The notes: generated from the sequence alone by a model not told the origin. A DNA stretch of 64,000 bases from Bryobacterales bacterium (GCA_963764105.1 CAVXRP010000011.1:70851-134850); one strand, 5' to 3'; shown: positions 12,046 to 50,283, numbered from the stretch's first letter. Numbers and translations are program-made.

Positions 12046-14490
12046 TCAGCGACGAACTCGCCCGATAATCGGGCTCGAACTCGCCCCTAGCGCTCTCTTC
12101 AGCGCCTGCTGAGCTTCACTCAAATTTCGCATTGCAGACGCGTCAATCGGGTCCTTCTGTAAGGCGTTCCTCGACAGTTCAGTGACTTCGCGGCAGAGTT
12201 GCGCAGCCATCTCCTTGGCATGCATGGAGAGCTCCGCATCGATCGCCCAAATATCACACAGCGCCAATGCCGCGGCCGCTTCCGCATCCGACCTATCCTT
12301 TGAATAGAGATCCCGTAAGGTGGAAAGCCCAGCGCGTATTAGGCGCACTCCTTCTTGTGTTCGCCCGTCAAAAATCATAGATCTTCCCAGCGCCACTTGC
12401 GAAAATCCTTCTATGCTCTGCCAGCCTGGATCGCGAGTCCTTTGCGCGGCCAATTGTTTGCTTGCCAGTAACAAAGCTTGCTTTGCATGGGGCAGAGCCT
12501 CCTGGTACTCCTTGGTGTCCACCAGCAGCATGGAGAAATCGACTTCGGCCATCGCCAGATAGCCGGTGGCCAGTTCATTCGATTGCATTCCGTGTGGTCC
12601 ATGGAGGATAGTCAACGCTGCTTCAAAATGTTGCCTCGCCTCCCTATATCGCTGCATACGCCAGAGCGCGCCACCGGTCATTGCCTCCATGCTGGCAACG
12701 TAAGGAAATCCGATAGGATTCTCGATATTTGCATCGCGCCACCGCTTGAAGCGCGCTAAAGTCTCCAACTGCCCTTTGAGCCCTTCTTCACACTTTCCCG
12801 CATAAGGCGCTTGTTCGTTACCAACGTAGTCGGTCGCTAGATTCCAACAGGAATTAGCCGCGCGCAAGTAATTTAGACCCTGCGCGGGTCCGGCAAAGAT
12901 GGGCTGTGCCAGCGCGCACGCCTCTTGGTGGTAGGCAATGGCTTGGCGGAGTTCACCGGATTGAACCAGCAGACCGCCAAGCTGCGATAACAGGTAGGCT
13001 AGCTGTCCGCGATCCACAATGTCGCCAGTCTTGCCGAATACGTTTCTGCGCAATTGAACCGCTTTGATCATGTTTTTGCGAGCCTGTTCGCGATCAACGT
13101 CGGATTGCGCCATCATGCGTTGGGTGCGCGCGATCAGAAAATACGCCTGCGCCAGTTCGCGGGTCAGCGGCACATCGCCTTGCGCATCCGCCGACATACG
13201 GTCCAAATACTCAAGGTTTCGCTGGGCTATTAAATTTCGCGCGTCCGTTGTGCCCGGCAACGCTTCTAATTTACGATCGACTTCGCCCAGGTACGACTGC
13301 ACCAGCTTCCGTCCGTTTTGGTAGCGGCGTTCGGCGATCGCCGCCTGCGCCTGCGCCACCGCATACCCGTGCCATACCGCGAACGCGGCCAGAGTGATGG
13401 CTACAAACGAAACCGCCGCGATCCCTACGATTGCCCTTCGTCGTTTGACGAACTTGCCTATCCTGTAGAGCAGGGCATCAGGTCGTGCCCGAACCGGCAG
13501 CTGGAGCAAGTAGCGGTCCAGGTCGGCCGCAAACGCTTCAACCGTTCGGTAGCGCCGGCTGGGTTCGCGATGGAGCGCCTGCCGGAGGATGGTGTCCAAA
13601 TCACCCCGCAACGTGCGCTTTAGAGACTTGGCATTGGTTCGTCTTGCCTCCGCCGCCCCTGCTGCCACGGCCTCGCTGACCAGTCTTGGTTCTGTTTCGG
13701 TCAGCAGGCGAATCGCCTCGGGTGGCGGAAGGCCGGCCACCGGATGGGGAAGCGAGCCGCTCAACAGTTCGAATAGCAACGCGGCCAACGAGTATACGTC
13801 GCTTCCTGTGCCGATCGGTTCACGAGACACCTGTTCCGGACTGGCATAACTGGGGGTGAGTAGCTGGACCGTTAAAGCGCCGTCGTCTGGCGCGGTGTCC
13901 AGCCATTTCGCAATGCCGAAGTCGAGCAGCTTGGGATCGCCACTGGAAGTAACCAGAATGTTGTCTGGTTTCAAATCCCGATGGACGATCAGATTCTGGT
14001 GCGCACTCTGAACCGCTTCGCAAATCCGTATGAACAGCTGAATGCGCTCGCGCACACTCAACTTTCCCTCATCGCAGAATTCGTCGATCCGTCGCCCTTC
14101 CACATACTCCATGACAAGGTAAGGGCGGCCATCCTCTGTCACACCGCCATCCAGCAGGCGCGCGATTCCAGGATGATTCAAGCGCGCAAGCGTTTGGCGC
14201 TCGCGCACAAAACGCTTCAGCGCATCACCAGACCCGATGTGGCCCTGGACTACCTTGATGGCTACCTTCTGTGAATAAGCTGCATCGGCCCGTTCAGCGG
14301 AATAAACAGAACCCATGCCGCCATGGCCGATTAAATTGAGAATGCGATAGGAGCCCATCCGCCTGCCGGGCGGCAGCAAGTCGATAGCGTGTAAACTCCA
14401 TCCGATATTGGCGAACAACGCTTCCGATTGCGTCTCGAGCGTGAGCAACTCCTTAATCTCAGAGCGAAGCTGTGGTTCGTCGCCGCACAT
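12046..14490 (-). CDS. serine/threonine protein kinase with TM helix and C-terminal TPR-like sensor region
   Basis: Kinase motifs GHGGMGSVY, VAIKVV, HRDLKPDNIL, DFGIAK and SPEQ. TM segment IVGIAAVSFVAITLAAFAVW. A conserved-looking N-terminal segment continues in frame upstream to a CTG at 14580 (see findings). Confidence 0.9.
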   Translation of the reverse strand: MCGDEPQLRSEIKELLTLETQSEALFANIGWSLHAIDLLPPGRRMGSYRILNLIGHGGMGSVYSAERADAAYSQKVAIKVVQGHIGSGDALKRFVRERQTLARLNHPGIARLLDGGVTEDGRPYLVMEYVEGRRIDEFCDEGKLSVRERIQLFIRICEAVQSAHQNLIVHRDLKPDNILVTSSGDPKLLDFGIAKWLDTAPDDGALTVQLLTPSYASPEQVSREPIGTGSDVYSLAALLFELLSGSLPHPVAGLPPPEAIRLLTETEPRLVSEAVAAGAAEARRTNAKSLKRTLRGDLDTILRQALHREPSRRYRTVEAFAADLDRYLLQLPVRARPDALLYRIGKFVKRRRAIVGIAAVSFVAITLAAFAVWHGYAVAQAQAAIAERRYQNGRKLVQSYLGEVDRKLEALPGTTDARNLIAQRNLEYLDRMSADAQGDVPLTRELAQAYFLIARTQRMMAQSDVDREQARKNMIKAVQLRRNVFGKTGDIVDRGQLAYLLSQLGGLLVQSGELRQAIAYHQEACALAQPIFAGPAQGLNYLRAANSCWNLATDYVGNEQAPYAGKCEEGLKGQLETLARFKRWRDANIENPIGFPYVASMEAMTGGALWRMQRYREARQHFEAALTILHGPHGMQSNELATGYLAMAEVDFSMLLVDTKEYQEALPHAKQALLLASKQLAAQRTRDPGWQSIEGFSQVALGRSMIFDGRTQEGVRLIRAGLSTLRDLYSKDRSDAEAAAALALCDIWAIDAELSMHAKEMAAQLCREVTELSRNALQKDPIDASAMRNLSEAQQALKRALGASSSPIIGRVRR

Positions 14491-14576
14491 GGCTTCCAGA
14501 AAGCTCTGGCGGCGTTCTTCCGGCTGCTCTAGTGCCGCCTCCAGCAGCCCCCTGACTCGCGCCCAGTGCTCCGCCG

Positions 14577-15128
14577 TCAGGTCGTTGCTCCACGTCCGAG
14601 TTCCCGTGCCAACCAGAGTTTTGCTGAAGCCCAGTCTCGATCCGCCGTGGCTGGAGAGACGGCTAGGACTTCGGCCACCTGGGAGGAATTTAATCCGCCA
14701 AAAAGCCGCAGTTCGGCCACCCTTCCTTGGCGCGCATCCAGGCCGTGGAGTTCTTCCAATAAATGGTCGATGTGGAAAAAATCGGTAGCGGATTGATTCG
14801 CCAGAGATTCCACCAGGCTCAATGTTACTTGCTGAAGACCGCCGGCGCGTTTTTGAGCATTGCGCCGCTCGGCATGAGAGGCCAGGACGCGCCGCATCAA
14901 AGTTGCGGCCAGACCAAGTACCTGCGCCTCGTTCTGCCAGTCGACTTTGTGCTGCTGAAGAAGCCGCAAGTAAGCTTCGTGAACTAGCGCTGTCGGTTGC
15001 AAAGTATGGTTGCGCCGCTCATTTCGCAGGTAGCTCCGAGCCAAACGGCGCAGTTCGGAATAAAGCGCCGGAACCAATTCATCTAGCGATACTGGCGCGG
15101 GCCGCGCTGCCGGGTCTGTTTGTTCCAT
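14577..15128 (-). CDS. ECF-type RNA polymerase sigma factor (kinase-associated ECF family)
   Basis: 183 aa. Region 2-like ALVHEAYLRLL. Region 4 HTH ELRLFGGLNSSQVAEVLAVSPATADRDWASAKLWL. Immediately upstream of and overlapping the kinase gene. Confidence 0.88.
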   Translation of the reverse strand: MEQTDPAARPAPVSLDELVPALYSELRRLARSYLRNERRNHTLQPTALVHEAYLRLLQQHKVDWQNEAQVLGLAATLMRRVLASHAERRNAQKRAGGLQQVTLSLVESLANQSATDFFHIDHLLEELHGLDARQGRVAELRLFGGLNSSQVAEVLAVSPATADRDWASAKLWLARELGRGATT

Positions 15129-15263
15129 TGCGTTGGCCGCAGACCTTTGGTAGAAGTCGGCTTGCTACCAGTATATCGGCCGATTCGCCACTCGGCCATG
15201 GTCCAGGCGGCGCCGCAGTAGCGGTACCGCCTAGACCAGCGAACTATTGAGCCCCTATAAAAA

Positions 15264-15968
15264 TTACTGTTTGCGGAGCTTGCGAGTGGCAAGCCCAACG
15301 AGACTCAAACCCGCACCGAGCAACAAGTTGGTAGAGGGTTCCGGCGTGGCGGAAACCGGCGCGCCGCCCACTGCATCGATGTTTGTAAATGTTAGCGATC
15401 CTCCGGCAGCCGCATTTGAGAAATGAAGAATTCCCCCACTGATCGGTGCCGCATTGTTTGATGAAAAGCCGATGAAGTCGCTCGAATACTGGTTCAAGAA
15501 CGCCAGCAACGTGGCTTGGTCGCCAGCTCCCAGTGCGGTCACGATGGACGCTTCTGAAGTTCCGCCAAAAACTTGACTCCAGGTCTCGGTACCCAGGGCC
15601 GTGTTATAGACACCCTCATTCACCGCAACGCTGACGCCGGTGCTTGAATAGAGGCCCAACGCCGTGGCGACACCGCTCGATATGAATTCCGGAACGGTCT
15701 CGGTGATTGGGAAAGTACCGCCGGGAATGAAGTGCGTTTGGCCGGTAAATGGGTTGGTGATCCCCACCCCTTTGGTGCCCGTTAAGGTCCCGCCATTGGC
15801 GTCGTAAACGAAGTAATCGTCATATTGGTTACTGGTAAGTGAAATGCTTCCGGTAAAGGTAGTCTGTGGACTAACCGCTGAGGCAGACAATATCCCCGCG
15901 CTGGCAAAGCTCAGCGCGACTAGGACACGAAAAGATTTTGACAAAATGTTTCCTCCATGGAAAAGCAA
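15264..15968 (-). CDS. PEP-CTERM sorting domain protein
   Basis: Signal peptide plus C-terminal TPEPSTNLLLGAGLSLVGLATRKLRKQ (PEP motif, TM helix, basic tail). Confidence 0.8.
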   Translation of the reverse strand: MLFHGGNILSKSFRVLVALSFASAGILSASAVSPQTTFTGSISLTSNQYDDYFVYDANGGTLTGTKGVGITNPFTGQTHFIPGGTFPITETVPEFISSGVATALGLYSSTGVSVAVNEGVYNTALGTETWSQVFGGTSEASIVTALGAGDQATLLAFLNQYSSDFIGFSSNNAAPISGGILHFSNAAAGGSLTFTNIDAVGGAPVSATPEPSTNLLLGAGLSLVGLATRKLRKQ

Positions 15969-16590
15969 TTAAACGTTAGGAGACTGGCTCCATACGATAA
16001 CGTCGAAATCGCATCCATGAATCCTCACAGCGAAGTACTAGCCGAGCGCCTCCGAGTACTGGGGTACTTTTGCTTCCGGCGCCTGCTGGCAAACCCTCAT
16101 CCCCCCTGTGAATCCGAGGAATCGTGGCTGCTCTTGCCTGCGCTGCGCCACCACCGCCGAACGCGCCTTCCAACGCGAACTCCGTCTCCTTCAACAGTTC
16201 TGTAAAGCCCACCCCTCGGTTGAAAGCCGCCCCGCTGCCCCCGCTTCGAACCCGCAGAACCCCATCCCAAACCTCGGGCTCGCCTCACCGTCGTGGGCGA
16301 AGATCCAACTAGCTAGCCCCACAGGCCTTACCCTGCTTCTCGAGAACATTGGCGGCATCAAAAATAGGGTCCCACGGCCGTATTGCCCTCCAGCCAAATC
16401 GCTGCCCGGCCGACCGCCGCCGCATGGTGAGCATTCTTGTCGGCAGGCAGCGTTCGGGTGGCCCGGGGCTTGTAATCCTGTGCTCATCCGTTCGGCGCCG
16501 AGAAAAATGAGTGACATTGTGTTAGCCTGTAAGTCGTTCCTAAGAACACGCTAAGTCCGCTTAGTTTCGCGGACCGGTAAGACCCAAGTC

Positions 16591-18069
16591 ATGTCGCTGC
16601 AAGTTTTTTTGCAAGCTCAAATCTCCGGCACTGAACGCTTCCTGACCGCTCCCTCCGCTGAGCAGCAGGATTCCATGGCGGATTTAAGTGGGCGTTGCGC
16701 CTGGCTGACGCTCGCCTGCGAAGTTCTACCGCGCGCGCTCCTTGCTGAACTGAAACTTTCGCCGATGCTGCTGGGTTCGAGCAGCGCCGAGCAGTTTCTG
16801 CTGGTGCTGGCGGAAGAAGACGTCGCGCGCGCCAACGATTTCCTGACGCGCGCGGCTGAAGAAATGGCCAAGCTGTCCGGCAGCACGCTGCGGCTGGTTT
16901 GGGCGAGCACCGAAAATCTGGGCGCTTGGCCCATTGCGCGTAAGCGGCTGGATGACGAGTTGCTCGCGAAGACGGTCGCGCCTCTGGCGGCAAGCGCCAA
17001 CGACTGGACGCAAGCCTTCGCGCCTTTCCTGCCGGCCGATACGGAAAAGGGCGACGCATATTTTGAAAAGTTCGGACTGGGCTTGGCCACTGCGCGCCAA
17101 GTGGGCTGGTCTGCTGATCAGCCGGCGCATCTTGTGTGGGACGGCGGACAATATAGCTGGACGCTCAAAGAACAATCGGGCGGTGAGGACGATGGCATTC
17201 TGTTCCCGCGCCGCTTTGCCATGGATGAGAACGGCAGCCATCCCAGTACGTTGCCTGAGCTGGCCGAGCGCCCTAGCGGCGCGCACAAGTGGGGTATTTT
17301 GCGCGGCGATGTGGATCATTTCGATCTGCAATTGCGGCGTGTCGCGTCGATTGAAGAACATATTCACCTTTCGGTATTGTTCAAAGAATTTTTCGCAGGC
17401 GAACTGGCGGTGCTGTGTACGCTGCCGGAGTTCTGGCGCAAAGTGACGATTCTCTATCGCGGTGGGGAAGATTTCGCGGTGGTCGGCACCTGGGATGCAC
17501 TGGTGCCGTTAGCACGCGAAATACAGCGACTGTTTGAAAAGTTCGTGGAACAAAATACCGCCATGTTTCCGAGTCTGGAAGCGCGCAGTATCAGCATGGC
17601 TATGGCGATTGCGCCCGATGCGGCCAGTCCGGCCGGCGCGATTTTTCAGGAGGCAGGCGTGCAGTTGCAAGCCGCCAAAGCGAGTGAGGTCGGCGGCTTC
17701 CGGCTTTTCGACCGCACGCTCGAGTGGAAGCGTTTAGGCGATGCCGAAGAGTTGAAGAGCAGCTTGATGCGTTTGGTGCGGGATTTTCGTTTTTCGCCCG
17801 ACTATGTGCATGATCTAGCTTCGGTGTATCGTGAATCGTTTTCGGCGCGCGCCCTGCGCCGCGGCAAAGGGATGAAAATCGATAAGCCGTGGCGCACGTT
17901 TATGCGCCTGTCAACGGTGATTCCGCAAGGGCGCGGCAAGGAATTGAATAACGTCCGGAACGCCGTGATCACGAATTTGGTGGGCAAGAAAACGGCTGGG
18001 TTGAAATTGCGACCTTCGGGCCGGGTGGGATTGGAGTGGGCGCGGCTGGCAGCCGGCGCCGATGAATAA
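16591..18069 (+). CDS. cas10: miniaturised Cas10/Csm1-like large subunit (Palm1 + Palm2, no HD domain, no Zn finger)
   Basis: Palm1-like LQAQISGTERFL, LSGRCAWLTL and GSSSAEQFLLVL. Palm2 WGILRGDVDHFD and ILYRGGEDFAVVGTWD (GGDD-equivalent), then SISMAMAIA. First gene of a csm-type operon. Only 492 aa, with an in-frame TAA 13 codons upstream of the ATG. Confidence 0.75.
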   Translation: MSLQVFLQAQISGTERFLTAPSAEQQDSMADLSGRCAWLTLACEVLPRALLAELKLSPMLLGSSSAEQFLLVLAEEDVARANDFLTRAAEEMAKLSGSTLRLVWASTENLGAWPIARKRLDDELLAKTVAPLAASANDWTQAFAPFLPADTEKGDAYFEKFGLGLATARQVGWSADQPAHLVWDGGQYSWTLKEQSGGEDDGILFPRRFAMDENGSHPSTLPELAERPSGAHKWGILRGDVDHFDLQLRRVASIEEHIHLSVLFKEFFAGELAVLCTLPEFWRKVTILYRGGEDFAVVGTWDALVPLAREIQRLFEKFVEQNTAMFPSLEARSISMAMAIAPDAASPAGAIFQEAGVQLQAAKASEVGGFRLFDRTLEWKRLGDAEELKSSLMRLVRDFRFSPDYVHDLASVYRESFSARALRRGKGMKIDKPWRTFMRLSTVIPQGRGKELNNVRNAVITNLVGKKTAGLKLRPSGRVGLEWARLAAGADE

Positions 18070-18103
18070 TCCGCGTGAAGCGTTAAGAAAAAAGGATTGA
18101 GCA

Positions 18104-18661
18104 ATGCCTGAAACAGAAGAAAAGAAACCCGAGGAGCGTAAAGGCGGCGACCGGCCAGCGCGCGAAGGGCGACCCAGTGGTCCGGGCGGCAGTGGCCCGC
18201 GTGGCGAGAATCGCGGCCCTGGCGGCGGCGATCGGGGCCGAGGCCCGGGAGGCGACCGGGGCGGTCCCGGTGGCGATCGCGGGCGCGGCGGACCGGCTGG
18301 CGACCGGCGCGGCGAAGGTCCGCCCGACATGGATATCGAGAAGTTGATTGCCGATCCGTTATATCTCGACAATCAGGCGCACGTGGTGGTCAGCCGCATG
18401 CGCGACATGGATTCCGGCACGAAGAGCCAGTTGCGCCGGCTCTATAACGCGGTGCGCCGTGCCACGCGAGCGCCCGAGAGCGAGCGCCAGCATGAATTTG
18501 TCATGGTGCGGGCGCGTTTGGCGTACACCATCGCGCGCCATTCCTTGCGCAGTCTAGACGCTCTGGAGCGTCTGCTGCTGCAAGTCACGCGCAAAAACGA
18601 TACGCGGGGCTACGAACGCTTCCGCGATCTGTTTGAAGCCATCATTGCTTATAACGAATAG
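18104..18661 (+). CDS. csm2: Cas11/Csm2-like small subunit with N-terminal Gly/Arg/Pro-rich extension
   Basis: The C-terminal ~105 aa are helical with Csm2-like landmarks (TKSQLRRLYNAV, RARLAYTIARH, FRDLFEAIIAYNE). The N-terminal ~75 aa are GGDRGRGPGGDRGGPGGDRGRGGPAGDRRG-type low complexity. AAGGA lies 9 nt before the ATG. Confidence 0.7.
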   Translation: MPETEEKKPEERKGGDRPAREGRPSGPGGSGPRGENRGPGGGDRGRGPGGDRGGPGGDRGRGGPAGDRRGEGPPDMDIEKLIADPLYLDNQAHVVVSRMRDMDSGTKSQLRRLYNAVRRATRAPESERQHEFVMVRARLAYTIARHSLRSLDALERLLLQVTRKNDTRGYERFRDLFEAIIAYNE

Positions 18662-18676
18662 GGTTGGGTTTTATTC

Positions 18677-19510
18677 ATGAGTTCTCACACGGCGGACACC
18701 GCACTTACATTTTTAGGAAAGCTGATTTTAGAAGGCGAGATTCATTGCCAGACCGGCCTGCATATTGGCGCCGGTAAAGGATCGCTGGAGATCGGCGGCG
18801 CCGATAATCCGGTGGTCAAGGACGCCTTCGGCATTCCGTACATTCCGGGCAGTTCCCTGCGCGGCCGCTTGCGCGCTCTGCTCGAACAAACCATGGGCCT
18901 GGCGGTGCCCGGCGAATTGGTTTATTTGTCTAAGCGCAAAGGGCAGGAAGTGCGCATCCATCAAAGCGATCGGGCCGATGACGAAATCTGCGTTTTGTTC
19001 GGCCGCAATCCCGGACGGGTGGATAGAGTAACCGGCGACCCTTTGGAAGGCGCCACGGCTACGCCGGCGCGTCTCACGGTTTTCGACGCGCCGCTGGTGG
19101 TGGATAGCATCACACCGCAGATGCGCGAAAACCTGGACGACGAATTGACCGAAGTGAAAAGCGAAAACGCGGTGGACCGCATCACCTCGCAGGCCAACCC
19201 GCGCACGCTCGAACGCGTGCCCGCCGGTGCGCGCTTCAAGTTCCGCATGGTGCTCGATATCCTCTGCGAAGAAGACAAGCCGCTAGTGGCGCGCGTGGCG
19301 GAAGGTTTGCGCCTGCTTGAAGACGATGCGTTGGGCGGCGGCGGCAGCCGTGGCAACGGCCGTGTCGCGTTTGCGGGTTTGAGCCTGTTGTGGCGCGGCA
19401 AAGATTATTACGCCAAGGGCGCGGCCGAAGAGAGCCTGCTCGCCGCTGCCGATCTGGCGGCGTTCCAGCAATTGGCCAGCGCCGGCGACTTCAGCGCGAA
19501 GCTAGCCTAA
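18677..19510 (+). CDS. csm3: Csm3 (Cas7 RAMP backbone subunit)
   Basis: Aligns by eye along its length with staphylococcal Csm3: TGLHIGAGKGSLEIGGADNPVVKD, IPGSSLRGRLRALLE, TEVKSENAVDRITSQANPRTLERVPAGARF, LEDDALGGGGSRGNGRV. The Asp of GGADNPVV corresponds to the RNA-cleaving Asp. Confidence 0.9.
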   Translation: MSSHTADTALTFLGKLILEGEIHCQTGLHIGAGKGSLEIGGADNPVVKDAFGIPYIPGSSLRGRLRALLEQTMGLAVPGELVYLSKRKGQEVRIHQSDRADDEICVLFGRNPGRVDRVTGDPLEGATATPARLTVFDAPLVVDSITPQMRENLDDELTEVKSENAVDRITSQANPRTLERVPAGARFKFRMVLDILCEEDKPLVARVAEGLRLLEDDALGGGGSRGNGRVAFAGLSLLWRGKDYYAKGAAEESLLAAADLAAFQQLASAGDFSAKLA

Positions 19511-19511
19511 A

Positions 19512-20897
19512 ATGCAGCCGGCAGTTTTGATACGGCTCCGTCCGCTCGGCGCTTGGCGCTTTGGACCGGCGGACGGCGGCCACGACCAGGTAGACACGCT
19601 CTATCGCAGCGACCGCTTGTATTCCGCGGTGACGCTCGCCATGCAGCGCTTGGGCCTGCTGGACGAGTGGCTGGACGCTACCGCGCGCGCCGCCAAACCG
19701 GCGCTGGTTTTCAGCTCGCTGTTTCCATTTCAAGGCGACACGCTCTATGCCATTCCGCCTGCCACTTTGTGGCCGCCGCCACTGGCGCTGCTCACTACGC
19801 CCAGTCCAGTTTTCTTGACCAAGATCCGCTGGAAGACCGCGCATTTCGTGCCGCTGAGTGTGATCGATTCTTTAATCACCGGCCAGCCGATTCTGGCCGA
19901 TCAATGGCTGCCCGACCCCGAAAGCGCCTGCCTGCTGCGGCGCGACCGGCCCAGTTCAAGTCCGTTTCGCGTCGTCATGCGCAGCACTGCGGCGGTCGAC
20001 CGCCTCACGCATTCGAGCGATGAAATCAAGCCTGTCGCTTGCGTCGAGTTCGAGCAAAATGCCGGCTTGTGGACTGTGGCGCGCTTTGCCGGTGCAGAGG
20101 AAGAGCAGGTGTGGAGCAGCCGATTGCAAGCGGCCCTGCGGCTGTTAAGCGATTCCGGTTTTGGCGGCGGACGCAGCCGAGGTTGGGGCCAGACGCAAGA
20201 GGCCGATTTCCAGAGCGGTTCTTGGCCTGCGATTCTGTTGCCGAAGTTAGGCCGCCTCTTGCGCAACGCCCCGCCAGCCGAGCTTGAACATGGTGCTGGG
20301 GCGCTCTATTGGCTGCTCTCGCTTTATTCGCCCGCGGCCGTCGATAAAGTTGATTGGACCGGCGGAAACTATTCTCTGACCTTACGGGGCGGCCGCGTGG
20401 ACAGCAATTCGGGTCAAGGCGCTACCAAGAAGAACGTACGCATGGTAAGCGAAGGCTGCGTGTTGGCCGCGGGCGATGAACCGGTGGGTGTCGCGGTCGA
20501 TGTAGCTCCCGACGGCTTCGCGCATCCCGTTTACCGCTCGGGTTTGGCCTTGGCTTTGCGGTTGCCAGTGGTTGAAGTACAACAGAAACCGATAGAGGAG
20601 CCCTCTACCGAGGAAGCCGTGATCGAACAGTTCGTTGAACCGACGGTGCATGAACCTGAAACGCCGATGGAACCGCCGGCAGCTGTCGAAGAGCCCGCTC
20701 CCCCATCCCCGCCAGAACAGGAGCCGCCGACAATCGAACAGGCAGCTGAGCCCGCAGTGCCCGGTCCCGAGATCCGTGAGCCCGAAGCGCCAGTGGAACC
20801 ACCGCCAGCTATAGAAGAGCCAACTCCGCCATCGCCGCCGGAACAGGAGCCGCCGCTTGAGTCTCCACCTCTGGAGGAGCTGCCGCATGAAGTATAA
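19512..20897 (+). CDS. csm4: Csm4 (Cas5 RAMP) with ~115-aa Pro/Glu-rich C-terminal extension
   Basis: LRPLGAWRFG, YRSDRLYSAVTLA, FSSLFPF, SDSGFGGGRSRGWGQ and HPVYRSGLALALRLPV (canonical Csm4 C-terminus), followed by the extra PE-rich tail. Starts 1 nt after the csm3 stop. Confidence 0.85.
   Translation: MQPAVLIRLRPLGAWRFGPADGGHDQVDTLYRSDRLYSAVTLAMQRLGLLDEWLDATARAAKPALVFSSLFPFQGDTLYAIPPATLWPPPLALLTTPSPVFLTKIRWKTAHFVPLSVIDSLITGQPILADQWLPDPESACLLRRDRPSSSPFRVVMRSTAAVDRLTHSSDEIKPVACVEFEQNAGLWTVARFAGAEEEQVWSSRLQAALRLLSDSGFGGGRSRGWGQTQEADFQSGSWPAILLPKLGRLLRNAPPAELEHGAGALYWLLSLYSPAAVDKVDWTGGNYSLTLRGGRVDSNSGQGATKKNVRMVSEGCVLAAGDEPVGVAVDVAPDGFAHPVYRSGLALALRLPVVEVQQKPIEEPSTEEAVIEQFVEPTVHEPETPMEPPAAVEEPAPPSPPEQEPPTIEQAAEPAVPGPEIREPEAPVEPPPAIEEPTPPSPPEQEPPLESPPLEELPHEV
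20652..20855 (+). repeat. imperfect tandem duplication (126-bp period) inside the csm4 3-prime end
   Basis: The 78-bp cores 20652-20729 and 20778-20855 encode EPETPMEPPAAVEEPAPPSPPEQEPP and EPEAPVEPPPAIEEPTPPSPPEQEPP. Confidence 0.8.
20873..20879 (+). promoter_or_regulatory. Shine-Dalgarno GGAGGAG for csm5
   Basis: GGAGGAG lies 7 nt upstream of the ATG at 20887, inside the csm4 3-prime end. Confidence 0.5.
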
Positions 20898-22029
20898 AGT
20901 GACTGCGCTCACGCCGCTCCTGGTCGGCGACGGCCGCGAACTCTCGCCCATCGACTACATGGTCTGGAAAGACCAGGTCAACGTACTCGATCAGACGCGC
21001 ATTTTCAAGCTGCTTTCGCGCGGCCCTCGCCTGGATGGTTATCTGGCCCAGCTGCGCAAGGCAAGCAAACTCGATTTCGCATCCTGGGGCGGCTTCGCGC
21101 AAAACTTCTCGCAGCGCCGCATTCCCTTTGAAACGCCCGATGCCACCGCAATTTGGAATAACGCGCCGCCGGAAGCACTCTTCATCCCCACCTTCGCCGC
21201 CAATTATCGCGGCCCTTATCTGCCCGCTTCGGCGCTCAAGGGCGCGTTGCGCAGCGGCCTGGTCTTTTCGCGCTGGTCTTTGAGCACCATGGAGCGAGCC
21301 GCCGCGGCGATGGAAGGCGACCGCTTGCCGCGCCGCGTGAGCGACAGTGCCGAAGGGAGCGCGCAAGCATCGCAAATGCGCGTCTTGGCTGTGGCCGATA
21401 GCGAACCCATTTCCACCAGCGCCTTCAAAGTGTATGTATCGCGGACGGCATCGCTCGATTTTCGGCAAGCGGGCGATCCGCAGCTAGTTTGGAAAGTGGC
21501 CGGCCGCGGAAGTGTCGCTGCGCAACGCGTGAACGAAGCTACGCCGGTATTTGCCGAAATGGCGATACCCGGAACCGAATTCGCCGGCCGATGCGATGAG
21601 CGCACATTTTTGGAGCAGCCCGATATGGCGCGTAGCCTGGGCTGGCGTAGCCCGCCCAACATTGACGCGATTGTCACAGCTGCCAATCAGTTTGCCGCCT
21701 CGCAATTGGAAATGCAAGCGCGTTATGCGCAAGCTACCGGCCTGCCGCAAGTGCAGGAGACGGTCGCGCATTTGCAATCCGAGTTGCAAGCCGCGCAAAC
21801 CAACCCGCTCTCCTGTCTCTTATGTTTGGGTTGGGGTGGCGGCTTTCTGAGTAAAGCCTGTTTTCACGATACAGATTCGGAAGCCTACCGCAAAATATTG
21901 CGCTCTGTGCCCTCCATTAGCAGGGCGATTCGCGACAAGGTGCCCTTTCCAAAGACTCGCCGGTTGATATTTGCAGGGGGTAAGCCGGCCAGCGTTCCCG
22001 GGTGGGTCCGCTTGCATGTGGAAGCATAG
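20887..22029 (+). CDS. csm5: Csm5 (Cas7-like RAMP)
   Basis: MKYKVTALTPLLVGDGRELSPIDYMV, PYLPASALKGALRSGL and C-terminal LGWGGGFLSK (G-rich loop). ATG at 20887 is preferred over the upstream start at 20857. Overlaps csm4 by 11 nt. Confidence 0.85.
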   Translation: MKYKVTALTPLLVGDGRELSPIDYMVWKDQVNVLDQTRIFKLLSRGPRLDGYLAQLRKASKLDFASWGGFAQNFSQRRIPFETPDATAIWNNAPPEALFIPTFAANYRGPYLPASALKGALRSGLVFSRWSLSTMERAAAAMEGDRLPRRVSDSAEGSAQASQMRVLAVADSEPISTSAFKVYVSRTASLDFRQAGDPQLVWKVAGRGSVAAQRVNEATPVFAEMAIPGTEFAGRCDERTFLEQPDMARSLGWRSPPNIDAIVTAANQFAASQLEMQARYAQATGLPQVQETVAHLQSELQAAQTNPLSCLLCLGWGGGFLSKACFHDTDSEAYRKILRSVPSISRAIRDKVPFPKTRRLIFAGGKPASVPGWVRLHVEA

Positions 22030-22191
22030 TATTCCAATATTAATCTGGGTTTTACGGGTCTTTAATTAGGACTTTGCGAGTGTCGCTTGGTTGTCCAACT
22101 CGGGTATGATAGGTTGTGGGAGTTCCCCACTAAACCAATCATCGGCGGCTTGGCCGCCTGACTTGTACCGAGGTCCCGTAGAGGGTCAACC

Positions 22192-23100
22192 ATGCAAAGC
22201 GCTATTTACAACCCATATTTCGGGTTTAGTGAGAACCCATTTAACATCAGTCCGGATCCGGAGTTCTTGTATCGCAGCCCGCAGCACGAAGAGGCGTTGG
22301 CGAACTTGATCTATGGCGTCCGGAGCCGCAAAGGTTTTATTGTTTTAACGGGTGAAGTCGGTACCGGCAAGACAACCATGCTCGAGTGTTTGCGCGATTA
22401 CCTGGACACCATGCGCACCGAGTTTGCGTTTATTTTTAATTCTCGCTTAACGCCGGACCAGTTCTTTGAAATGATGGCGTTCGATTTCGATTTGGAGTGC
22501 GACCGCAAATCGAAAACGGATGTGCTGTTTGCTTTGAACACGTTGCTGATCAAGCAGGCCGAAAAAGGCCGCACTTGCGTGCTGTTGGTGGATGAAGCTC
22601 ACAACTTGGAGTGGGACGTTTTGGAGGAAATTCGTTTGCTGGGCAATCTGGAAAATCGCGGTGGTAAGCTGCTGCAGATTATCCTGGCGGGGCAACCGGA
22701 ATTGGACCGCAAGCTGGACGCACCGAATCTGCGGCAACTGAAACAGCGCATTGTTTTGCGTTGCAACTTGAATCCGCTTGAGCCGGACGAAGCAGTGGCG
22801 TACATTGAGACGCGCATGGCGCGTGCGGGCATGCCGGAGCAAACGGTCTTTTCGCCCGAACTGCTGGAAGAGATTTACCGGCGCGCGCGGGGTATCCCGC
22901 GCGTGATTAACCTGATCTGCGATAACCTGTTGGTGACCGCTTTCGCCATGGAGCGCAAAACTGCAACTGTAGAAATGCTGGATGAGGTTTGCCAAGATCT
23001 GCGTCTGGAGTGGCCGGGTTCTGGCCGGCGCGGGCGTTCGCGCTTCAACGTCGACGAAGAACACCAGTTTCCCGACGCCATTACCGCGCGTGGCGATTAG
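22192..23100 (+). CDS. ExeA/GspA-like AAA ATPase (PEP-CTERM-locus type secretion ATPase family)
   Basis: N-terminal YNPYFGFSENPFNISPDPEFLYRSPQHEEAL, Walker A GEVGTGKTT, Walker B VLLVDEAHNL, and QIILAGQPEL. Confidence 0.85.
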   Translation: MQSAIYNPYFGFSENPFNISPDPEFLYRSPQHEEALANLIYGVRSRKGFIVLTGEVGTGKTTMLECLRDYLDTMRTEFAFIFNSRLTPDQFFEMMAFDFDLECDRKSKTDVLFALNTLLIKQAEKGRTCVLLVDEAHNLEWDVLEEIRLLGNLENRGGKLLQIILAGQPELDRKLDAPNLRQLKQRIVLRCNLNPLEPDEAVAYIETRMARAGMPEQTVFSPELLEEIYRRARGIPRVINLICDNLLVTAFAMERKTATVEMLDEVCQDLRLEWPGSGRRGRSRFNVDEEHQFPDAITARGD

Positions 23101-23487
23101 ACGCTCGGCGATATGTTTCTGCGCCTGTGCCACTGCCTGCTGAGCCGACCGCCCAGATCTGAACCCGTAGCTGCTTTCAGAAAACGTCCGGTCCCACCGC
23201 CTCTGGAGAACCCGCATCACCGACGGTGCTGAATCAATCGATCCAGCACCGTCGGAATGCCCGCGCCACCCTTATTGGCCTTTAACCCGCTGCCCTGCTT
23301 TTTTCAGGTTTTCTCGCTCCCTACTTCCTCCATCCATCGATTCGTGGCTGGCTGGGCTTTCGGGGTTATTCACCGTCGAGAGCGATTCGATCTCCTCGCT
23401 CCCCGCTTCGCGGGCTTCACCCGCTGGCGTGGAAGGGAATTCCAGTTCGACCTGAATACTCTGCTTCATTTCGCTCCTGAGATGCAT
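23101..23487 (-). pseudogene. group II intron reverse transcriptase remnant (5-prime part only, frameshifted, internally deleted)
   Basis: Minus-strand pieces in three frames: RENLKKAGQRVK, ANKGGAGIPTVLDRLIQ, and VLQRRWDRTFSESSYGFRSGRSAQQAVAQAQKHIAE (RT0-RT2 motifs). Homology stops abruptly at 23100, where the ATPase gene ends. Confidence 0.65.
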
Positions 23488-26829: not shown

Positions 26830-28280
26830 ATGCTGACTGACATGATTCATTTGATTACCGGCACGGCCGATCTGATTGCCGCCTTTTTGTTCCTCTACGG
26901 CCTGAAGCGCATGTCCTCACCGGTGTCCGCACCGTCGGGCATTCGCGTTGCCGGCTTGGGAATGCTGCTGGCTATTTTCGCCAACATGCTCGATGTCTTC
27001 ACAGTGGATGCCGCCGCTAAACCTCATCGCACCGTCAACATCGCTCTAGCCGCGACGGCTTTGCTGCTGGGCGCCTCCGTCGCCTGGTTCAAGGGCAGGA
27101 CCGTTGCCATGACAGAGATGCCACAGATGGTGGCCATCTATAACGGTTTGGGCGGCGGCGCCGCCGGGGCGATTGCGGCGGTCGAGTTGTTCGGGAACAA
27201 GACGCACGGCGCAAGCCAACTCGTAGTGACGCTGCTGGGTGGACTGATTGGCGGCGTTTCGTTATCGGGTTCAGTCATTGCCTGGGCGAAGCTCGACGAG
27301 ATTCTGAAGAAGCCACTGCGCTTTCCCGGTCAGCGGTTCCTGAACGCGATCGTTTTTCTCGCCGCGCTTACCGTGGCCGGATACATTGTCTTCACCGCCC
27401 TCTACGGCGGCGCCACACTTTTGCCCATCAGCTCTATTCTGTGGATATTTTTCGGCCTTACCCTGCTGTCTGGCATTGTAACGACACTGCCGATTGGCGG
27501 TGCTGATATGCCTGTGGTGATCTCGATTTATAACGCCGCCACAGGTTTGGCGGTAGGTTTCGACGGCTATGTCCTCGGAGACCCGGCGTTGATGATCGCG
27601 GGCATGGTCGTGGGCGCCGCCGGAACACTGCTTACCGTCCTTATGGCTAAGGCTATGAATCGATCGGTGAGTAACGTGCTGTTTTCGAACTTCGGAGAAG
27701 TCAGCAAAAAGAAGCAGGGCAAGATCGTCGGCAGCGAGAAACCGGTAGAAGCCAGCGATGCCGGGATCTTTATGCGCTACGCGGCGAGTGTCATCTTGAT
27801 GCGGGATACGGCCTCGCCGTAGCTCAGGGGCAGGAGAAACTTTACGACTTTGTGAAGCTATTGCAGGCGGCGGGCGTGAAAGTGAGATTCGCCATTCACC
27901 CCGTGGCGGGACGCATGCCGGGACAGATGGACGTACTGCTCGCGGAAGCCGGCGTTCCGTACGATCTCATTTTCCAGTTAGATGCCATCAACGACGACTT
28001 CGCGACCACGGACGTGGCGCTCGTGATTGGCGCCAACGACGTGGTGAATCCGGCAGCGCGCGCGGACAAGTCATCGCCCATCTTTGGCATGCCCATTCTG
28101 AACGCCGATAAGGCAAAGAAGGTTTATGTCGTGAAGCGCGGCCAGGGTGAAGGTTACTCCGGTATTGAAAACCAGCTTTTCTACGACGAGAACTGCTCCA
28201 TGGTTTACGGCGATGCGCAGGCCGTGCTGGTGCAGATGATTGAAGCAGTGAGAGGGCTCGGCTCGGCCGTAGCCGCTTAG
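26830..28280 (+). pseudogene. pntB: NAD(P) transhydrogenase subunit beta (PntB), split by a frameshift (or sequencing indel)
   Basis: The TM half (26830-27822) ends ..AASVILMRDTASP*. The NADP(H) domain (27852-28280) contains IHPVAGRMPGQMDVLLAEAGVPYD. Restoring one C at about 27803 (ATGCGGG to ATGCCGGG) gives the expected ..VILMPGYGLAVAQGQEKLYDFVKLL... Confidence 0.85.
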
Positions 28281-41570: not shown

Positions 41571-42836
41571 CTAGCGCTCACAAACGTTTGTTCCGCCGGC
41601 GCGCTTGATTTCGTCCGCCACCTCACTGAAACTGTTCTCAAGCGCAGCCTGATAAGGTGTCTTCCGATTCTTGCCGCACAAGTTGGGATTCGCTTTGTGT
41701 TGTAAGAGCAGCTTTGCTGTGGTCCCTTTGCCAAAGGAGGCAGCCGAATACAGGGCGGTTGTCCCTGAACTGCCGCTGATACGATTCACTAGAGCGCCCT
41801 CCTCAAGCAGCATTTCCGCAATCGCGTCAAAGCCTTGCAAAGAGGCATCCGCCAAAGGGTAAGTTCCGTTCGGGCCGCTGAGATTTGGATCGGCGTGGTC
41901 TTTCAAGAGCACGCCTACAACCTTCGCCGCGCCCGTGAACGCCGCCGTGTCCAGCGCGCTAGAGCCCGAAGGTAGAATACTGTTGGCCGATGCGCCGTGG
42001 CGAAGAAGAGTTTTCACTACCAGGGACTCATCTTTTCGAACCGCCGTCTCCATCGCCCTCTCCAATAAGAGCGGCGTCTCTTTCTCCTTCGGCTCCGCTT
42101 CGAGCAGGAGGACAGCGCAATCCTCTTTCCTCATTCTGATGGCATTGTCTAAAGGGCGGTAACCGTTCTTGTCGGGAATGCCAAGGTCCGGATTGAAGCG
42201 AAGCAGATACTCAACAAGCCGCGCGTGGCCCTTGTAGGCGGCTTCGTTGATGGGTGTTGCGCCCGTTCTAGGCTCGATTTCATTGAGGCGCGCGCCATGC
42301 GCCAGCAGAACAGCGGTTTCATCGAGAAATCCATACCAAACTGCTTCATCTAACGGGCTCGTGCCATCCTGGTCGCGAGCATTGACATCGGCGTCCTTGG
42401 CAAGGAGCAACTGGATGACGGCTAACTGTCCATTCGCGAAGTGGAGAGCCGTCCGACCTGTCGGCCCTTTGGCGTTTACCTGAGCCCCGGCCGCAATCAA
42501 TATCGCAGCGATGCGCACGTTGCCTGACTCGGCCGCATATTGAAGCGGGCTGTTTGACGATTCGCGCTCGCCGCGGCCGTCTAACTGTAAGTTCGGATCG
42601 GCATGGTAGGCAAGCAACAACTCAACAAGTTGGGTTTGGTTAAATGACACCGCATAGGTTAGAGGAGTCTGCCCATATTGGTCAGCCAGATTCGGACCGA
42701 CGCCGGACGAAAGAAGGCTCTCCGCCCTTTTTAGATCGCCGAGCCTGGCTGCTTTCGTAAGCATCTCCGCGGCGGCATCGGCGTCGGCTGCGAACGCGTT
42801 CGCCGCCAGCCCTAAAACGAAAAGGATCAGCCGCAT
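41571..42836 (-). CDS. ankyrin repeat protein, exported
   Basis: Signal peptide followed by at least 10 repeats of the G.TPL..A......V..LL..GA..N type. Confidence 0.88.
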   Translation of the reverse strand: MRLILFVLGLAANAFAADADAAAEMLTKAARLGDLKRAESLLSSGVGPNLADQYGQTPLTYAVSFNQTQLVELLLAYHADPNLQLDGRGERESSNSPLQYAAESGNVRIAAILIAAGAQVNAKGPTGRTALHFANGQLAVIQLLLAKDADVNARDQDGTSPLDEAVWYGFLDETAVLLAHGARLNEIEPRTGATPINEAAYKGHARLVEYLLRFNPDLGIPDKNGYRPLDNAIRMRKEDCAVLLLEAEPKEKETPLLLERAMETAVRKDESLVVKTLLRHGASANSILPSGSSALDTAAFTGAAKVVGVLLKDHADPNLSGPNGTYPLADASLQGFDAIAEMLLEEGALVNRISGSSGTTALYSAASFGKGTTAKLLLQHKANPNLCGKNRKTPYQAALENSFSEVADEIKRAGGTNVCER

Positions 42837-45902: not shown

Positions 45903-46262
45903 AGGTGCTTTTTTCTTCGTTGCTATAATCGAGAAGTAGGCGAATTTTGGCGCAGCGTCAACAGAAAAATAGGAAGATTATGCGCTGTTGTTAGAAAAAA
46001 TTTGAGTTCCAGAATGGCATTTTCAAGCTATGGATAGGCATATATTGCCTGTTTTTGACACTTTTGGGCCTTTTCTAAAAACATTGCAATTATAATATGC
46101 TTTCCTTTAGTTACTTACAAATTAATGATATTTGTGTGCCAATTCCATGAATAACACAATTTTTAGAATCAAGTTACACTTTCAAATTTCGCGCGAGCGC
46201 TTCTTTCCTTTTCTGCGCACTTTCGCCGTGCAGTTTGCCCGTCTCATGGCAAACTCAGGGCC

Positions 46263-47390
46263 ATGGACATCGTCGAAGCAACGCGCAAGTTCGAAGCTTG
46301 GCTGAAGGGCCGGATCGCCATCGTCCGCCGCGACATCGCCTACAAGCATGAGCAGATGCGCGCCGACCCGTTTCTGTTCTTTCGCGCCACTTACTACCGC
46401 TGGGCGCAAATTTGGCCGAGCAATGCCCGCAAACTGGCGCGCGCGGCCGAGGTCTACGCCGTCGGCGATCTCCATATCGAGAATTTCGGCACATGGCGCG
46501 ATGCCGAAGGCCGGTCTGTCTGGGGCGTCAACGATTTCGACGAGGCCCACCCGATGGCCTTTACCAACGATCTCGTGCGTCTGGCCGTCAGCGCGCTGCT
46601 GGCCGCCGATAGCGTCGCGCGGTTTCAACCTCAGGCCCGGCGGAAATTTGCGCCGCAGAATCGCCGACGGCTACCGCGCTGAGATCGAGCGGGAGGCGAA
46701 CCGTTTGTCTGATGGAGATCCAATCCCGAGCTGCGCCGCATGGCCATCCAGGATTTCCGTCAGCCCGCGGCCTTTTGGGAGACGGCTCGAAGGCCAAGTC
46801 GGCGCCGCATGCGCGGCGCTTGCCGGCCTCCGGCGCGCAAGGCCTTCGCGAATATGCTATCCAGAAGGGCGCCGAGGCCACATATCGCGTGCTCACAAAA
46901 CTCCGAAAGGCCTCGGCAGCCTGGGCCGGCAGCGCTTCCTGGCCTGGCGCGATTGGCAGGGCGGCACGATGGCGCGCGAGGTCAAGGAAGTCGCGCCCTC
47001 CGCCTCGGCGGGCCTCTGGGCAAGGGTGACCGCGCCGGCGAGGGCAATCCCTGGCTGGAGAAAACCGTCCGCGTCGGCCGTGCGCTGCGCCGATCCGTGG
47101 TGGGAAGTCCGGCGGGGCTGGCTGGTGCGCCGGCTCGGGCCCCGATTGCAGCCGCATCGACATCGAGGAACTCGTCCATCACGAAGACCTCGCCGCGCTC
47201 CTGCATCGCCATGGGCCGCGAGACCGCCAATATCCACCTCGGCACGCCCAAGGGCCGCAAGCGCCTGCGCGCCGCGTTGGCCGAGCTGCCGGACGACTGG
47301 CTTCTGGGCGTGGCGCGGCAGATGCACAAGCGCAGCCTGAAAGAATGGCGCGACTTCAAGCGCGGGGCCAAAAGGAAGCTCGCGGGCTGA
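46263..47390 (+). pseudogene. DUF2252 family protein, multiple frameshifts
   Basis: FFRATYYRW, AVGDLHIENFGTWRD and NDFDEA are in the first frame. Later family-like pieces (GLGSLGRQRFLA, MGRETANIHLGTP, LKEWRDF) lie in the two other frames, so at least 3 frame switches. Confidence 0.7.
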
Positions 47391-47411
47391 AACGCGCTTC
47401 TCTATAACGAG

Positions 47412-47933
47412 GTGCGATCCATGTTTCGCCTCGCCCTCGTCCTTCTCCTGCCGCTGGCGCTGCCCGCGCGCGCGAACCTCGGCGAAAGCGTGGTCGATTG
47501 CGTCAAGCGCTACGGCAAGCCGATGGCCTTTTCCGAGGCTGGCGCGAAAAACCCGTTCGGCACGATGGTCTTCATCGCCGGCCCCTACCAGTTGCTCGTT
47601 TTTCTCAGTGATACGGTCGAGGTCGGCGCGCGCGTGACCAAGAAAGACAAGAGCGCGTTCACGGATGCCGAGATGAAAACCATCATGGACGCCGACGCCT
47701 CCACGCCGTGGATCCCCGCCGCCAGCACCGATCCCACCTGCCTGCAATGGACCCGCGCCGACCAGGCGACGGTGCTCTACGACAAGGACAAGAAAATACT
47801 CATCTTCACTTCGCCCCAGATGGCCGATGCGATGAAATCCAGGCCGCCGCCTGCACCCGCCGCGGCTACTCCGCCGGCGCCGCCGCGACCCCCGGTTCCC
47901 CTTGCGCCGCCGTTCCCACGCCGTGGGATCTGA
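47412..47933 (+). CDS. hypothetical exported protein with Pro-rich C-terminus
   Basis: Signal peptide FRLALVLLLPLALPARA. 173 aa, apparently intact. Confidence 0.5.
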   Translation: MRSMFRLALVLLLPLALPARANLGESVVDCVKRYGKPMAFSEAGAKNPFGTMVFIAGPYQLLVFLSDTVEVGARVTKKDKSAFTDAEMKTIMDADASTPWIPAASTDPTCLQWTRADQATVLYDKDKKILIFTSPQMADAMKSRPPPAPAAATPPAPPRPPVPLAPPFPRRGI

Positions 47934-48038
47934 TCTCGACCAACGCCGCCGCGGCGGCCTCCACGAACGGCCGCCCGCGAAGCCATAGCCCGCCGCGAAC
48001 CCGCCTTTGACAACCCACCCGATATCCTGTCCCTTGGG

Positions 48039-49319: not shown

Positions 49320-49325
49320 CGAATT

Positions 49326-49410
49326 TAGATAATGATTATAACGATTTTGATGAAGGGAACGGTCCATTTTGCTCTGAATAATCCTTTCAATCATTATTAA
49401 TCATTATCTA
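49326..49410. repeat. AT-rich element with 12-bp perfect inverted termini
   Basis: TAGATAATGATT (49326-49337) and AATCATTATCTA (49399-49410) flank 61 bp of AT-rich sequence between convergent genes. Confidence 0.6.
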
Positions 49411-50194: not shown

Positions 50195-50283
50195 GGAGAG
50201 ATTAAGGTTTGAGGTTAAAAAATGGGCGCTATTTTCAGGTTGGCCCGGACAACTTGGGACTTGCGAATGTCACTGCTTGATGA

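Follow-up and report, generated by a model that had tools for sequence, protein, structure and literature searches.

In textbooks, CRISPR-Cas loci exemplify defense islands that are patchy, mobile and fast-evolving. Canonical type III-A (Csm) systems, such as those of Staphylococcus epidermidis, Streptococcus thermophilus, Lactococcus lactis, Enterococcus italicus and Thermococcus onnurineus, combine a Cas10 (Csm1) of about 750-800 amino acids (aa) that carries an HD nuclease domain with an array, cas6, csm6 and cas1-cas2. Here we analyze a 64,000-nucleotide (nt) stretch from a Bryobacterales bacterium (GCA_963764105.1, CAVXRP010000011.1:70851-134850; hereafter the window), which contains a cas10-csm2-csm3-csm4-csm5 operon. 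The operon shares with the canonical systems its gene order, the Csm1 fold, the catalytic Asp loop of Csm3, and the DxD and GGDD-type motifs of Palm2, but its Cas10 has 492 aa and no HD domain, and the array, cas6, csm6 and cas1-cas2 are all missing from the module. Unlike those systems, the module has an RGG-like extension on Csm2, an acidic tail on Csm4, a linked AAA+ ATPase, and vertical inheritance resembling that of core genes. Identity to the canonical proteins is about 30% for Cas10 by sequence alignment (11-17% in structure-based alignment) and 35-39% for Csm3. We propose, with a probability of about one half, that the module is an HD-less Csm ribonucleoprotein which the Bryobacterales have domesticated and inherit vertically, and which binds and cuts RNA using a guide that does not come from a locus-associated array.

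Several described systems share some of these properties. [quoted passage not shown] The Bryobacterales module shows the opposite pattern, with the HD domain lost and the catalytic Asp of Cas7 and, for the most part, the cyclase retained, and thus belongs to neither subtype. Hoikkala et al. (2024) found 133 HD-less, cyclase-positive loci without an effector among 1113 loci, and suggested signaling between loci (PMC11229360). Those loci were treated as ordinary defense and were not reported to be array-less, order-wide, syntenic or slowly evolving (PMC11229360), and one whole Bryobacterales clade differs from them further in having no cyclase. Effectors exapted in CRISPR-associated transposons, type IV systems and nuclease-dead type V systems were also kept after loss of the nuclease, of adaptation, or of both, and are likewise linked to an AAA_22-type AAA+ ATPase (cf. 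TnsC/TniB). They continue to rely, however, on arrays or on atypical guides that are encoded in cis, whereas the Bryobacterales module has no transposase or TniQ, and its ATPase is of the ExeA/MshM/PEP-CTERM type rather than TnsC. For one member of the order, Ca. Solibacter usitatus, Challacombe et al. (2011) reported a complete genome with no CRISPRs and three Cas genes (Acid_0892, 0893 and 0895), which they took as leftovers after CRISPR loss (PMC3174227). We found no description of the family in Makarova 2025, in Hoikkala 2024, or in the literature on Bryobacter or Solibacter with Csm.

The operon encodes a complete Csm module with an HD-less Cas10

An initial annotation, made from the sequence alone, had described five co-directional open reading frames (ORFs) as a stand-alone effector operon derived from type III-A, with gaps of 34, 15 and 1 nt and an 11-nt overlap between csm4 and csm5. 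We found the same coordinates and spacing, and hidden Markov model searches identified all five genes (Table 1). Csm2 scored 40.9 bits against TIGR01870 (cut-off 30.6), Csm3 204 bits against TIGR02582 (cut-off 90), Csm4 128 bits against TIGR01903 (cut-off 55), and Csm5 55.6 bits against TIGR01899 (cut-off 38.3). The RAMP motifs that had been quoted for Csm3, Csm4 and Csm5 are all present in the respective ORFs. We placed the start of csm5 at the ATG at 20887, inside an ORF that opens with TTG at 20857, and alignment across loci showed that conservation of Csm5 begins at MKYKVTAL, matching this ATG.

Cas10 matched the Palm2 family PF22335 at 57.7 bits (cut-off 27). The score against the full-length Cas10/Csm1 equivalog TIGR02578 was 115.6 bits, short of the cut-off of 170, with an alignment confined to model positions 490-703 of 753. 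With a family profile, residues 7-80 aligned to residues 255-327 of S. epidermidis Cas10 (SeCas10), the start of Palm1, and residues 208-323 aligned to SeCas10 501-617, which is Palm2. The window protein thus begins at Palm1, at the equivalent of SeCas10 residue 255, and has no HD nuclease domain. An AlphaFold2 (AF2) model from a 104-sequence alignment across deep clades reached a pLDDT of 91.3 and a pTM of 0.91; an earlier model from 15 close homologues (pLDDT 48) was not used. Top matches of this model in a Foldseek search of the PDB were Csm1 chains only, with TM-scores of 0.70-0.76 when normalized to the query and about 0.5 when normalized to the target, the latter because the PDB targets carry the additional HD domain. 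As modeled, the "mini-Cas10" of the initial annotation is not a mere Palm core but a complete Palm1-D2-Palm2-D4 Csm1 that lacks the HD nuclease only; the call of Csm2 for the second gene stands. The HD domain is found in only about 65% of III-A systems (PMC11229360) and therefore does not strictly define the subtype. With a Cas10 Palm/cyclase fold followed in order by Csm2, Csm3 with its catalytic Asp, Csm4 and Csm5, we conclude that the operon is a type III-A (Csm) module.

No array, adaptation gene or known effector is encoded with the module

In the 64-kilobase (kb) window we found no CRISPR-like array or family of direct repeats, and the tandem repeats there are short coding repeats only. 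No Rfam family was detected in the window, and a permissive scan of 15.5-24 kb that included the CRISPR-DR models gave nothing relevant. These results extend to the whole window the earlier statement that the flanks hold no 24-40-bp direct repeats. PADLOC and Pfam scans of the window's other 65-67 ORFs of at least 90 aa returned no cas1, cas2, cas6, csm6/csx1, CARF or SAVED match, also as previously noted.

We then read the gene family in relatives, using the best 80 loci of a one-genome-per-species scan with ±10-kb flanks (7 complete chromosomes among them) and 10 further loci from four more deep clades, 90 related loci in total. We screened the 80 loci (1.59 Mb) by k-mers for three or more repeats at regular spacing, and found no CRISPR array there or in the additional loci scanned, together about 1.7 Mb of flanks. 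Three candidates from this search were rejected. Those in L012 and L016 are repeats encoding the Csm4 tail, and the one in L208 (11120-11240) consists of three 48-nt tandem copies in a small ORF after the csm-linked ATPase gene; none has unique spacers. Clustering of all flanking ORFs of the 80 loci revealed no recurrent cas6, cas1, cas2 or CARF gene, and the Pfam gene lists of the ten further loci contained no match to cas1, cas2 or cas6. No CARF/SAVED protein or other known effector responding to cyclic oligoadenylate (cOA) is encoded with the module in the window or in the 80 loci. An array together with cas6, an adaptation module, or both, as in a full CRISPR-Cas system, is absent from the window and, in the related loci scanned, within ±10 kb of the module. 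The possibility that the window holds only a fragment of an ordinary III-A locus, raised at the outset, does not agree with the relatives, because all 90 loci, including complete chromosomes, are array-less and HD-less.

These absences could also be explained if the module is an ordinary III-A antiviral system that obtains its CRISPR RNAs (crRNAs) and Cas6 from loci elsewhere in the genome and sends cOA to a CARF/SAVED effector encoded elsewhere. Type III loci often have no array, cas6 or cas1-cas2 of their own and borrow those of other loci (PMC12669027), and the 133 HD-less, cyclase-positive loci without effector come from complete genomes, where signaling between loci was the explanation offered (PMC11229360). 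On the other side stand the complete lack of arrays in about 1.7 Mb of flanks and the one complete genome of the order that was reported to have Cas genes and no CRISPR (PMC3174227).

The module is conserved to the depth of the order and evolves like core genes

Relatives of the module occur in at least 136 species of the one-genome-per-species scan, nearly all labeled Bryobacterales, Bryobacteraceae or other Acidobacteriota. In a large protein database the best 120 of more than 1,400 Cas10 homologues, which we examined for length, identity and names, were 486-527 aa long and 64-100% identical to the window protein, and those with names came from Bryobacteraceae or from metagenome-assembled genomes (MAGs) of Acidobacteriota. 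When 1.84 billion representative proteins were searched exhaustively with HMMER, full-length Cas10s of 433-525 aa formed a closed family, extending down to 34% identity (E about 1e-64). Beyond it lies a gap to canonical Cas10s of 770-800 aa at E about 1e-19, which align over Palm2 and D4 only. The plasmid and phage collections contained no close relative; their only matches were canonical Csm3 proteins with identities of 39% or less, and Cas10 had none. Neither the window Cas10 nor the Bryobacter aggregatus protein had a record under exact look-up.

We refer to the loci whose Cas10 is at least 58% identical to that of the window as clade A. The band of 38-57% identity is mostly clade C and the band below 38% is mostly clade B, which is the genus Bryobacter and includes the B. 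aggregatus protein; clade D and the clade of L209 bring the deep clades besides A to at least four. Named members of the deep clades are all Bryobacterales or Bryobacteraceae, save two MAGs that are probably mislabeled. The initial annotation had called for a survey of this gene order with the short Cas10. In the 80 loci the order cas10-csm2-csm3-csm4-csm5 is constant, with the same spacing, wherever the contig is long enough, and the 10 further loci repeat the order. Every locus long enough to show all five ORFs has them intact, as was noted earlier for the window.

The module also has a recurrent genomic setting. Its commonest upstream neighbors in the 80 loci are a short-chain dehydrogenase (SDR; 52 loci), a VWA protein (44) and a protein of about 1,130 aa (40), with lgt, lspA and ileS farther upstream, and a thiolase gene and fadB recur downstream; the thiolase-fadB pair is displaced to 32.8-36.2 kb in the window. 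The L209 locus keeps lgt, a 1,117-aa protein and VWA genes upstream, and the isolate-derived contig L210 keeps ileS-lspA-lgt upstream. The neighborhood is a partly conserved housekeeping context (ileS-lspA-lgt ... module ... thiolase-fadB).

To compare rates, we took mean pairwise identities of module proteins and neighbors on the same locus pairs. Csm3 (85%) and Csm2 (82%) were followed by Csm5 (68%), Cas10 (66%) and Csm4 (61%), while the neighbors gave 82% (VWA), 78% (thiolase), 74% (lgt), and 71% for both SDR and fadB. Cas10 divergence correlated with that of the neighbors (Spearman 0.25-0.67), except that there was no correlation with thiolase (153 pairs); the neighbors correlated among themselves about as well (0.32-0.46). 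Among closest relatives, dN/dS was 0.06 for cas10, 0.07 for csm2, 0.05 for csm3, 0.13 for csm4 and 0.10 for csm5, compared with 0.03 for the linked ATPase and 0.05-0.11 for the neighbors. We conclude that the module is under strong purifying selection and evolves as slowly as its core-gene neighbors, in agreement with the earlier inference that it is maintained.

These data bear on two other explanations. The first holds that the module no longer functions and is what remains of a decayed CRISPR-Cas locus, the view taken in 2011 of the S. usitatus Cas genes by the authors who reported them (PMC3174227). The loss of the array, the adaptation genes, cas6 and the HD domain would fit such decay. 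However, the five ORFs are intact, their dN/dS is 0.05-0.13, and neither catalytic nor structural motifs vary over deep divergence; because of these selection data the remnant explanation is effectively refuted, and we consider it extremely improbable. The second is the use of crRNAs from elsewhere in the genome. Defense loci are usually patchy, mobile and fast-evolving, whereas this module is syntenic, evolves at the rate of core genes and is present in at least 136 species. The initial annotation had left a distant array and exaptation as alternatives, and conservation by vertical descent across the lineage favors exaptation.

The Csm backbone is more conserved than the cyclase

The Palm2 cyclase motifs of the window Cas10 are GDVDHF and GGEDF. 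We tallied these motifs by identity to the window protein and found GGDD or GGED in 115 of 122 clade A sequences (82 GGDD, 33 GGED) and GGDD in 91 of 111 sequences of the 38-57% band; clade D also keeps GGDD. Below 38% identity, 25 of 29 sequences are degenerate, with GIEG, GMEG or SIEG in place of the GGDD motif and AVD in place of DxD. The Bryobacter genus clade thus keeps the module despite having lost the cyclase motifs. Because the cyclase is lost in this clade and the rest is kept, the shared function of the family would be to bind and cleave RNA through the Csm backbone rather than to signal by cOA. In the clade of the window, where GGED and DVD are present, the cyclase is probably still active. 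An antiviral module with crRNAs supplied in trans would fit the GGDD/GGED and DxD motifs kept in clades A, C and D and the retained Csm3 Asp, but not the persistence of a cyclase-less module in Bryobacter. Weighing both sides, we regard that explanation, the strongest competitor of the domestication reading, as possible, though we would not favor it.

The catalytic Asp43 of Csm3 sits in the loop LEIGGADNPVVKD, which does not vary among 74 clade A loci or in clades B, C and D (GGADNP constant). Csm3 is 65-95% identical across deep clades, and 65-79% identical between clades whose Cas10s share about 33-49%. The C-terminal core of Csm2 is nearly invariant in 58 loci. It is preceded by a disordered extension of about 85 aa that is rich in G, R, E, P and D and RGG-like (18104-18360, aa 1-85), and that ranges from 65 to 156 aa in clade A. 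Csm4 ends in an acidic Pro/Glu-rich tail of about 110 aa (20568-20897, aa ~353-461), which varies from 0 to 242 aa across loci and is rich in E, P and A. Neither the Csm2 extension nor the Csm4 tail is usual for Cas11 or Cas5. Both are variable in length and encoded by short tandem repeats (TRF matches at 18223-18315).

An AAA+ ATPase is usually paired with the module

Downstream of csm5 the window encodes an AAA+ ATPase that was not part of the initial annotation and that we now regard as the sixth conserved partner of the five-gene operon. It belongs to the AAA_22 family. Against TIGR03015, the model of the ATPase associated with XrtA/PEP-CTERM systems, it scored 294.8 bits, below the cut-off of 324.5, with a full-length alignment (5-272 of 269). 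Given this score, and since its conserved neighbor is csm5 rather than exopolysaccharide genes, we do not assign it to the XrtA/PEP-CTERM ATPases.

In 67 of about 72 clade A loci that are long enough (about 93%), an orthologue lies 100-220 nt downstream of csm5. Orthologues also adjoin csm5 or lie close to it in clades B, C and D and in the clade of L209, and the ATPase is the only neighbor conserved across all deep clades. In L081 (clade B), L208 (clade D) and L209 the order cas10-csm2-csm3-csm4-csm5 is followed by the ATPase after 58-108 nt. In clade C an inserted gene separates the two in L085 and L086, where the ATPase gene is 1-3 kb away, and the ATPase gene is missing in L083 and L087. 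The orthologues of clades B and C are 64-70% identical to that of the window, with intact Walker motifs, where the Cas10s are about 34-49% identical. The module is thus usually paired with an ExeA/MshM-type AAA+ ATPase, and its role as a partner of the module is probable but unproven.

A further explanation is that Csm and the ATPase form a single system, a regulator rather than an immune effector, in which, for example, RNA recognition would be coupled to an ATP-driven output in PEP-CTERM, exopolysaccharide or envelope biology. The adjacency in clades A, B, D and L209 and the close position in two clade C loci are consistent with this, as are the stronger conservation of the ATPase than of Cas10 (83% vs 66% in clade A), its full-length match to the XrtA/PEP-CTERM model, and a PEP-CTERM protein upstream in the window. 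However, the ATPase gene has a promoter-like block of its own in the 100-220-nt gap, unrelated genes can insert between csm5 and the ATPase, and in L036, L049, L053, L083, L087 and L210 the ATPase does not adjoin the module. In addition, the ExeA/MshM-type family is not known to bind RNA or nucleotides made by Cas10. We consider this explanation unlikely.

In the clade C locus L085 the gene between csm5 and the ATPase (15237-16073) encodes a PG_binding_1/glycoside-hydrolase-19 protein, which recalls the peptidoglycan-binding domain fused to ExeA in type II secretion systems.

Non-coding elements flank the operon in clade A

All-against-all blastn with the six module genes masked revealed a single conserved non-coding element near the module, the 5' leader of cas10, and no other conserved non-coding RNA. 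The leader is about 75 nt long, occurs once per locus and is limited to clade A. It starts with a putative TGn-extended -10-like element, TGTGTTAGCCT (16518-28), followed by two predicted hairpins at 16533-16549 and 16555-16574 (the second GTCCGC/GCGGAC) and a conserved single-stranded tail, CGGTAAGACC, with the consensus CGCYACGACC. Hairpin 1 covaries (AGAGCGT/ACGCTCT vs TTAGCGT/ACGCTAA), and in hairpin 2 every one of the 5 predicted pairs shows compensatory changes. Searching metagenomes with the core 17-mer of the leader returned chance matches in unrelated coding DNA in 79 of the 80 loci that were read back. Because the hairpin and CGCYACGACC resembled the 3' half of a repeat, we considered whether the leader could be a solitary CRISPR repeat with a guide, the start of cas10 serving as the "spacer." We rejected this idea because the leader is restricted to clade A and single-copy, the stretch that follows its tail differs in both length and sequence between loci, and it has no similarity to the Rfam CRISPR-DR models. 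From its sequence and predicted fold, the leader is most simply read as a cis-regulatory 5' untranslated region.

Between csm5 and the ATPase gene, relatives carry TTGGCA-N5-AATTGCCGAT and, 6-10 nt on, TATGAT; the copy in the window is degenerate. The GG-N10-GC spacing fits a sigma-54 (-24/-12) promoter, a putative assignment by consensus match. Scanning 15.9-23.9 kb for promoter and terminator consensus sequences yielded no match above the chance level. Positions 23184-23260, in the 760 nt of non-coding DNA that follow the ATPase gene, matched the CcsR1 small RNA of Rfam at 17 bits (gathering threshold 65, E = 2.2), which is almost certainly chance.

Table 1. Features of the csm locus in the window and the evidence for each
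Feature	Position	Strand	Evidence
Putative promoter and 5' leader of cas10	16518..16590	+	conserved non-coding block in clade A
cas10/csm1 without HD domain, 492 aa, Palm1-D2-Palm2-D4 (as modeled)	16591..18069	+	PF22335 1.7e-15, profile alignment, AF2, Foldseek
csm2 (Cas11)	18104..18661	+	TIGR01870 and PF03750 above cut-offs on residues 88-184
csm3 (Cas7 backbone RNase)	18677..19510	+	TIGR02582 2e-60
csm4 (Cas5)	19512..20897	+	TIGR01903 4e-37, Csm4_C
csm5	20887..22029	+	TIGR01899 6e-15; PADLOC Csm5 1e-22, full length
Intergenic region with promoter-like block of the ATPase gene	22030..22191	+	alignment of 65 loci, motif table of 39 loci
ExeA/MshM-family AAA+ ATPase (AAA_22)	22192..23100	+	TIGR03015 5.8e-88; Walker A GEVGTGKTT, Walker B LLVDEAHN

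Other features of the window

The initial annotation had contrasted the intact operon with many frameshifted neighbors. We found two split genes, which lends little support to "many." One is pntB, of which the ORF at 26830-27822 covers positions 4-306 of 456 in the PNTB model, with the rest in the ORF at 27852-28280. The other is an IS4-family transposase gene (DDE_Tnp_1_4) on the minus strand at 58677-60009, split over two overlapping frames, with model positions 4-135 in the ORF at 59374-60009 and 134-428 in the ORF at 58677-59570. A second IS4-type transposase gene, at 54750-56213, is intact.

Upstream of cas10, on the minus strand (12046-15968), lie genes for a Ser/Thr kinase whose long tail is helical or TPR-like, for an ECF sigma factor and for a PEP-CTERM-anchored protein. 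PADLOC PD-T4-6 kinase models match the kinase (E = 8e-63), and the trio is not conserved beside the module in other genomes. An ankyrin-repeat protein on the minus strand (41571-42836) matches the PADLOC "Ankyrin" model (7e-25), and one other ORF of the window matches PDC-M72A (1.9e-49). The segment at 46000-52000 has a G+C content of 0.62-0.64, compared with about 0.55-0.58 in the flanking DNA, and many long ORFs that overlap on both strands.

Discussion

If the module is a domesticated Csm ribonucleoprotein, its parts suggest how it could work. Cas10 without its HD domain and Csm4 would cap a filament of Csm3 and Csm2 on an RNA guide, and Csm5 would close the filament. Complementary RNA would be bound, and Csm3 would then cut it at intervals of 6 nt. 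The binding of a target probably still activates, in most clades, the Palm cyclase, whose product would act on a receptor encoded elsewhere; cleavage of DNA would be impossible. Host RNases may load, as the guide, an RNA that is not from a CRISPR or that is encoded remotely, and the module would serve a conserved host function, such as RNA surveillance, regulation or constitutive defense, rather than adaptive immunity. More tentatively, and as a reading we think doubtful at present, the type III effector may have been domesticated by the whole order, maybe together with the ATPase, with no array at all and a non-CRISPR cellular RNA as its guide, cleaving or sensing endogenous or invading RNAs.

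Several points weigh against the proposed domestication. GGDD is kept in most clades, which implies a signaling output, and a receptor is not among the genes found with the module. It is common for type III modules to use crRNAs and Cas6 supplied in trans (PMC12669027), and HD-less, cyclase-positive loci without effector are already known (133 of 1113; PMC11229360). No guide RNA was identified. The negative results for array, cas6 and CARF reach 10 kb from the module in relatives and 42 kb in the window, and the count of 136 species is one of carriers, not a fraction of Bryobacterales genomes with the module. Finally, the assignment of Acid_0892, 0893 and 0895 to csm2, csm3 and csm5 of this module is a putative one, made from their numbering; the S. 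usitatus proteins did not appear in the top-120 lists or the cluster look-ups, and we found no further paper that mentions them.

Taken together, we describe a type III effector that is kept to the depth of a bacterial order without a local array or DNase and, in one clade, without a cyclase, and that makes the question of what Csm can do without CRISPR directly testable. Carriers in culture include Bryobacter aggregatus, an isolate whose contig is 6.7 Mb long, and, probably, Ca. Solibacter usitatus. For builders of RNA-targeting tools, the small HD-less Cas10 and the highly constrained core of Csm3 and Csm2 may be of interest too. If true, the array-independent reading would make this the first array-independent, vertically inherited type III system. 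The outcome would be either a new class 1 exaptation for regulation or surveillance with a non-CRISPR guide RNA, possibly coupled to the ATPase, or an unusually stable defense module that depends on other loci in trans.

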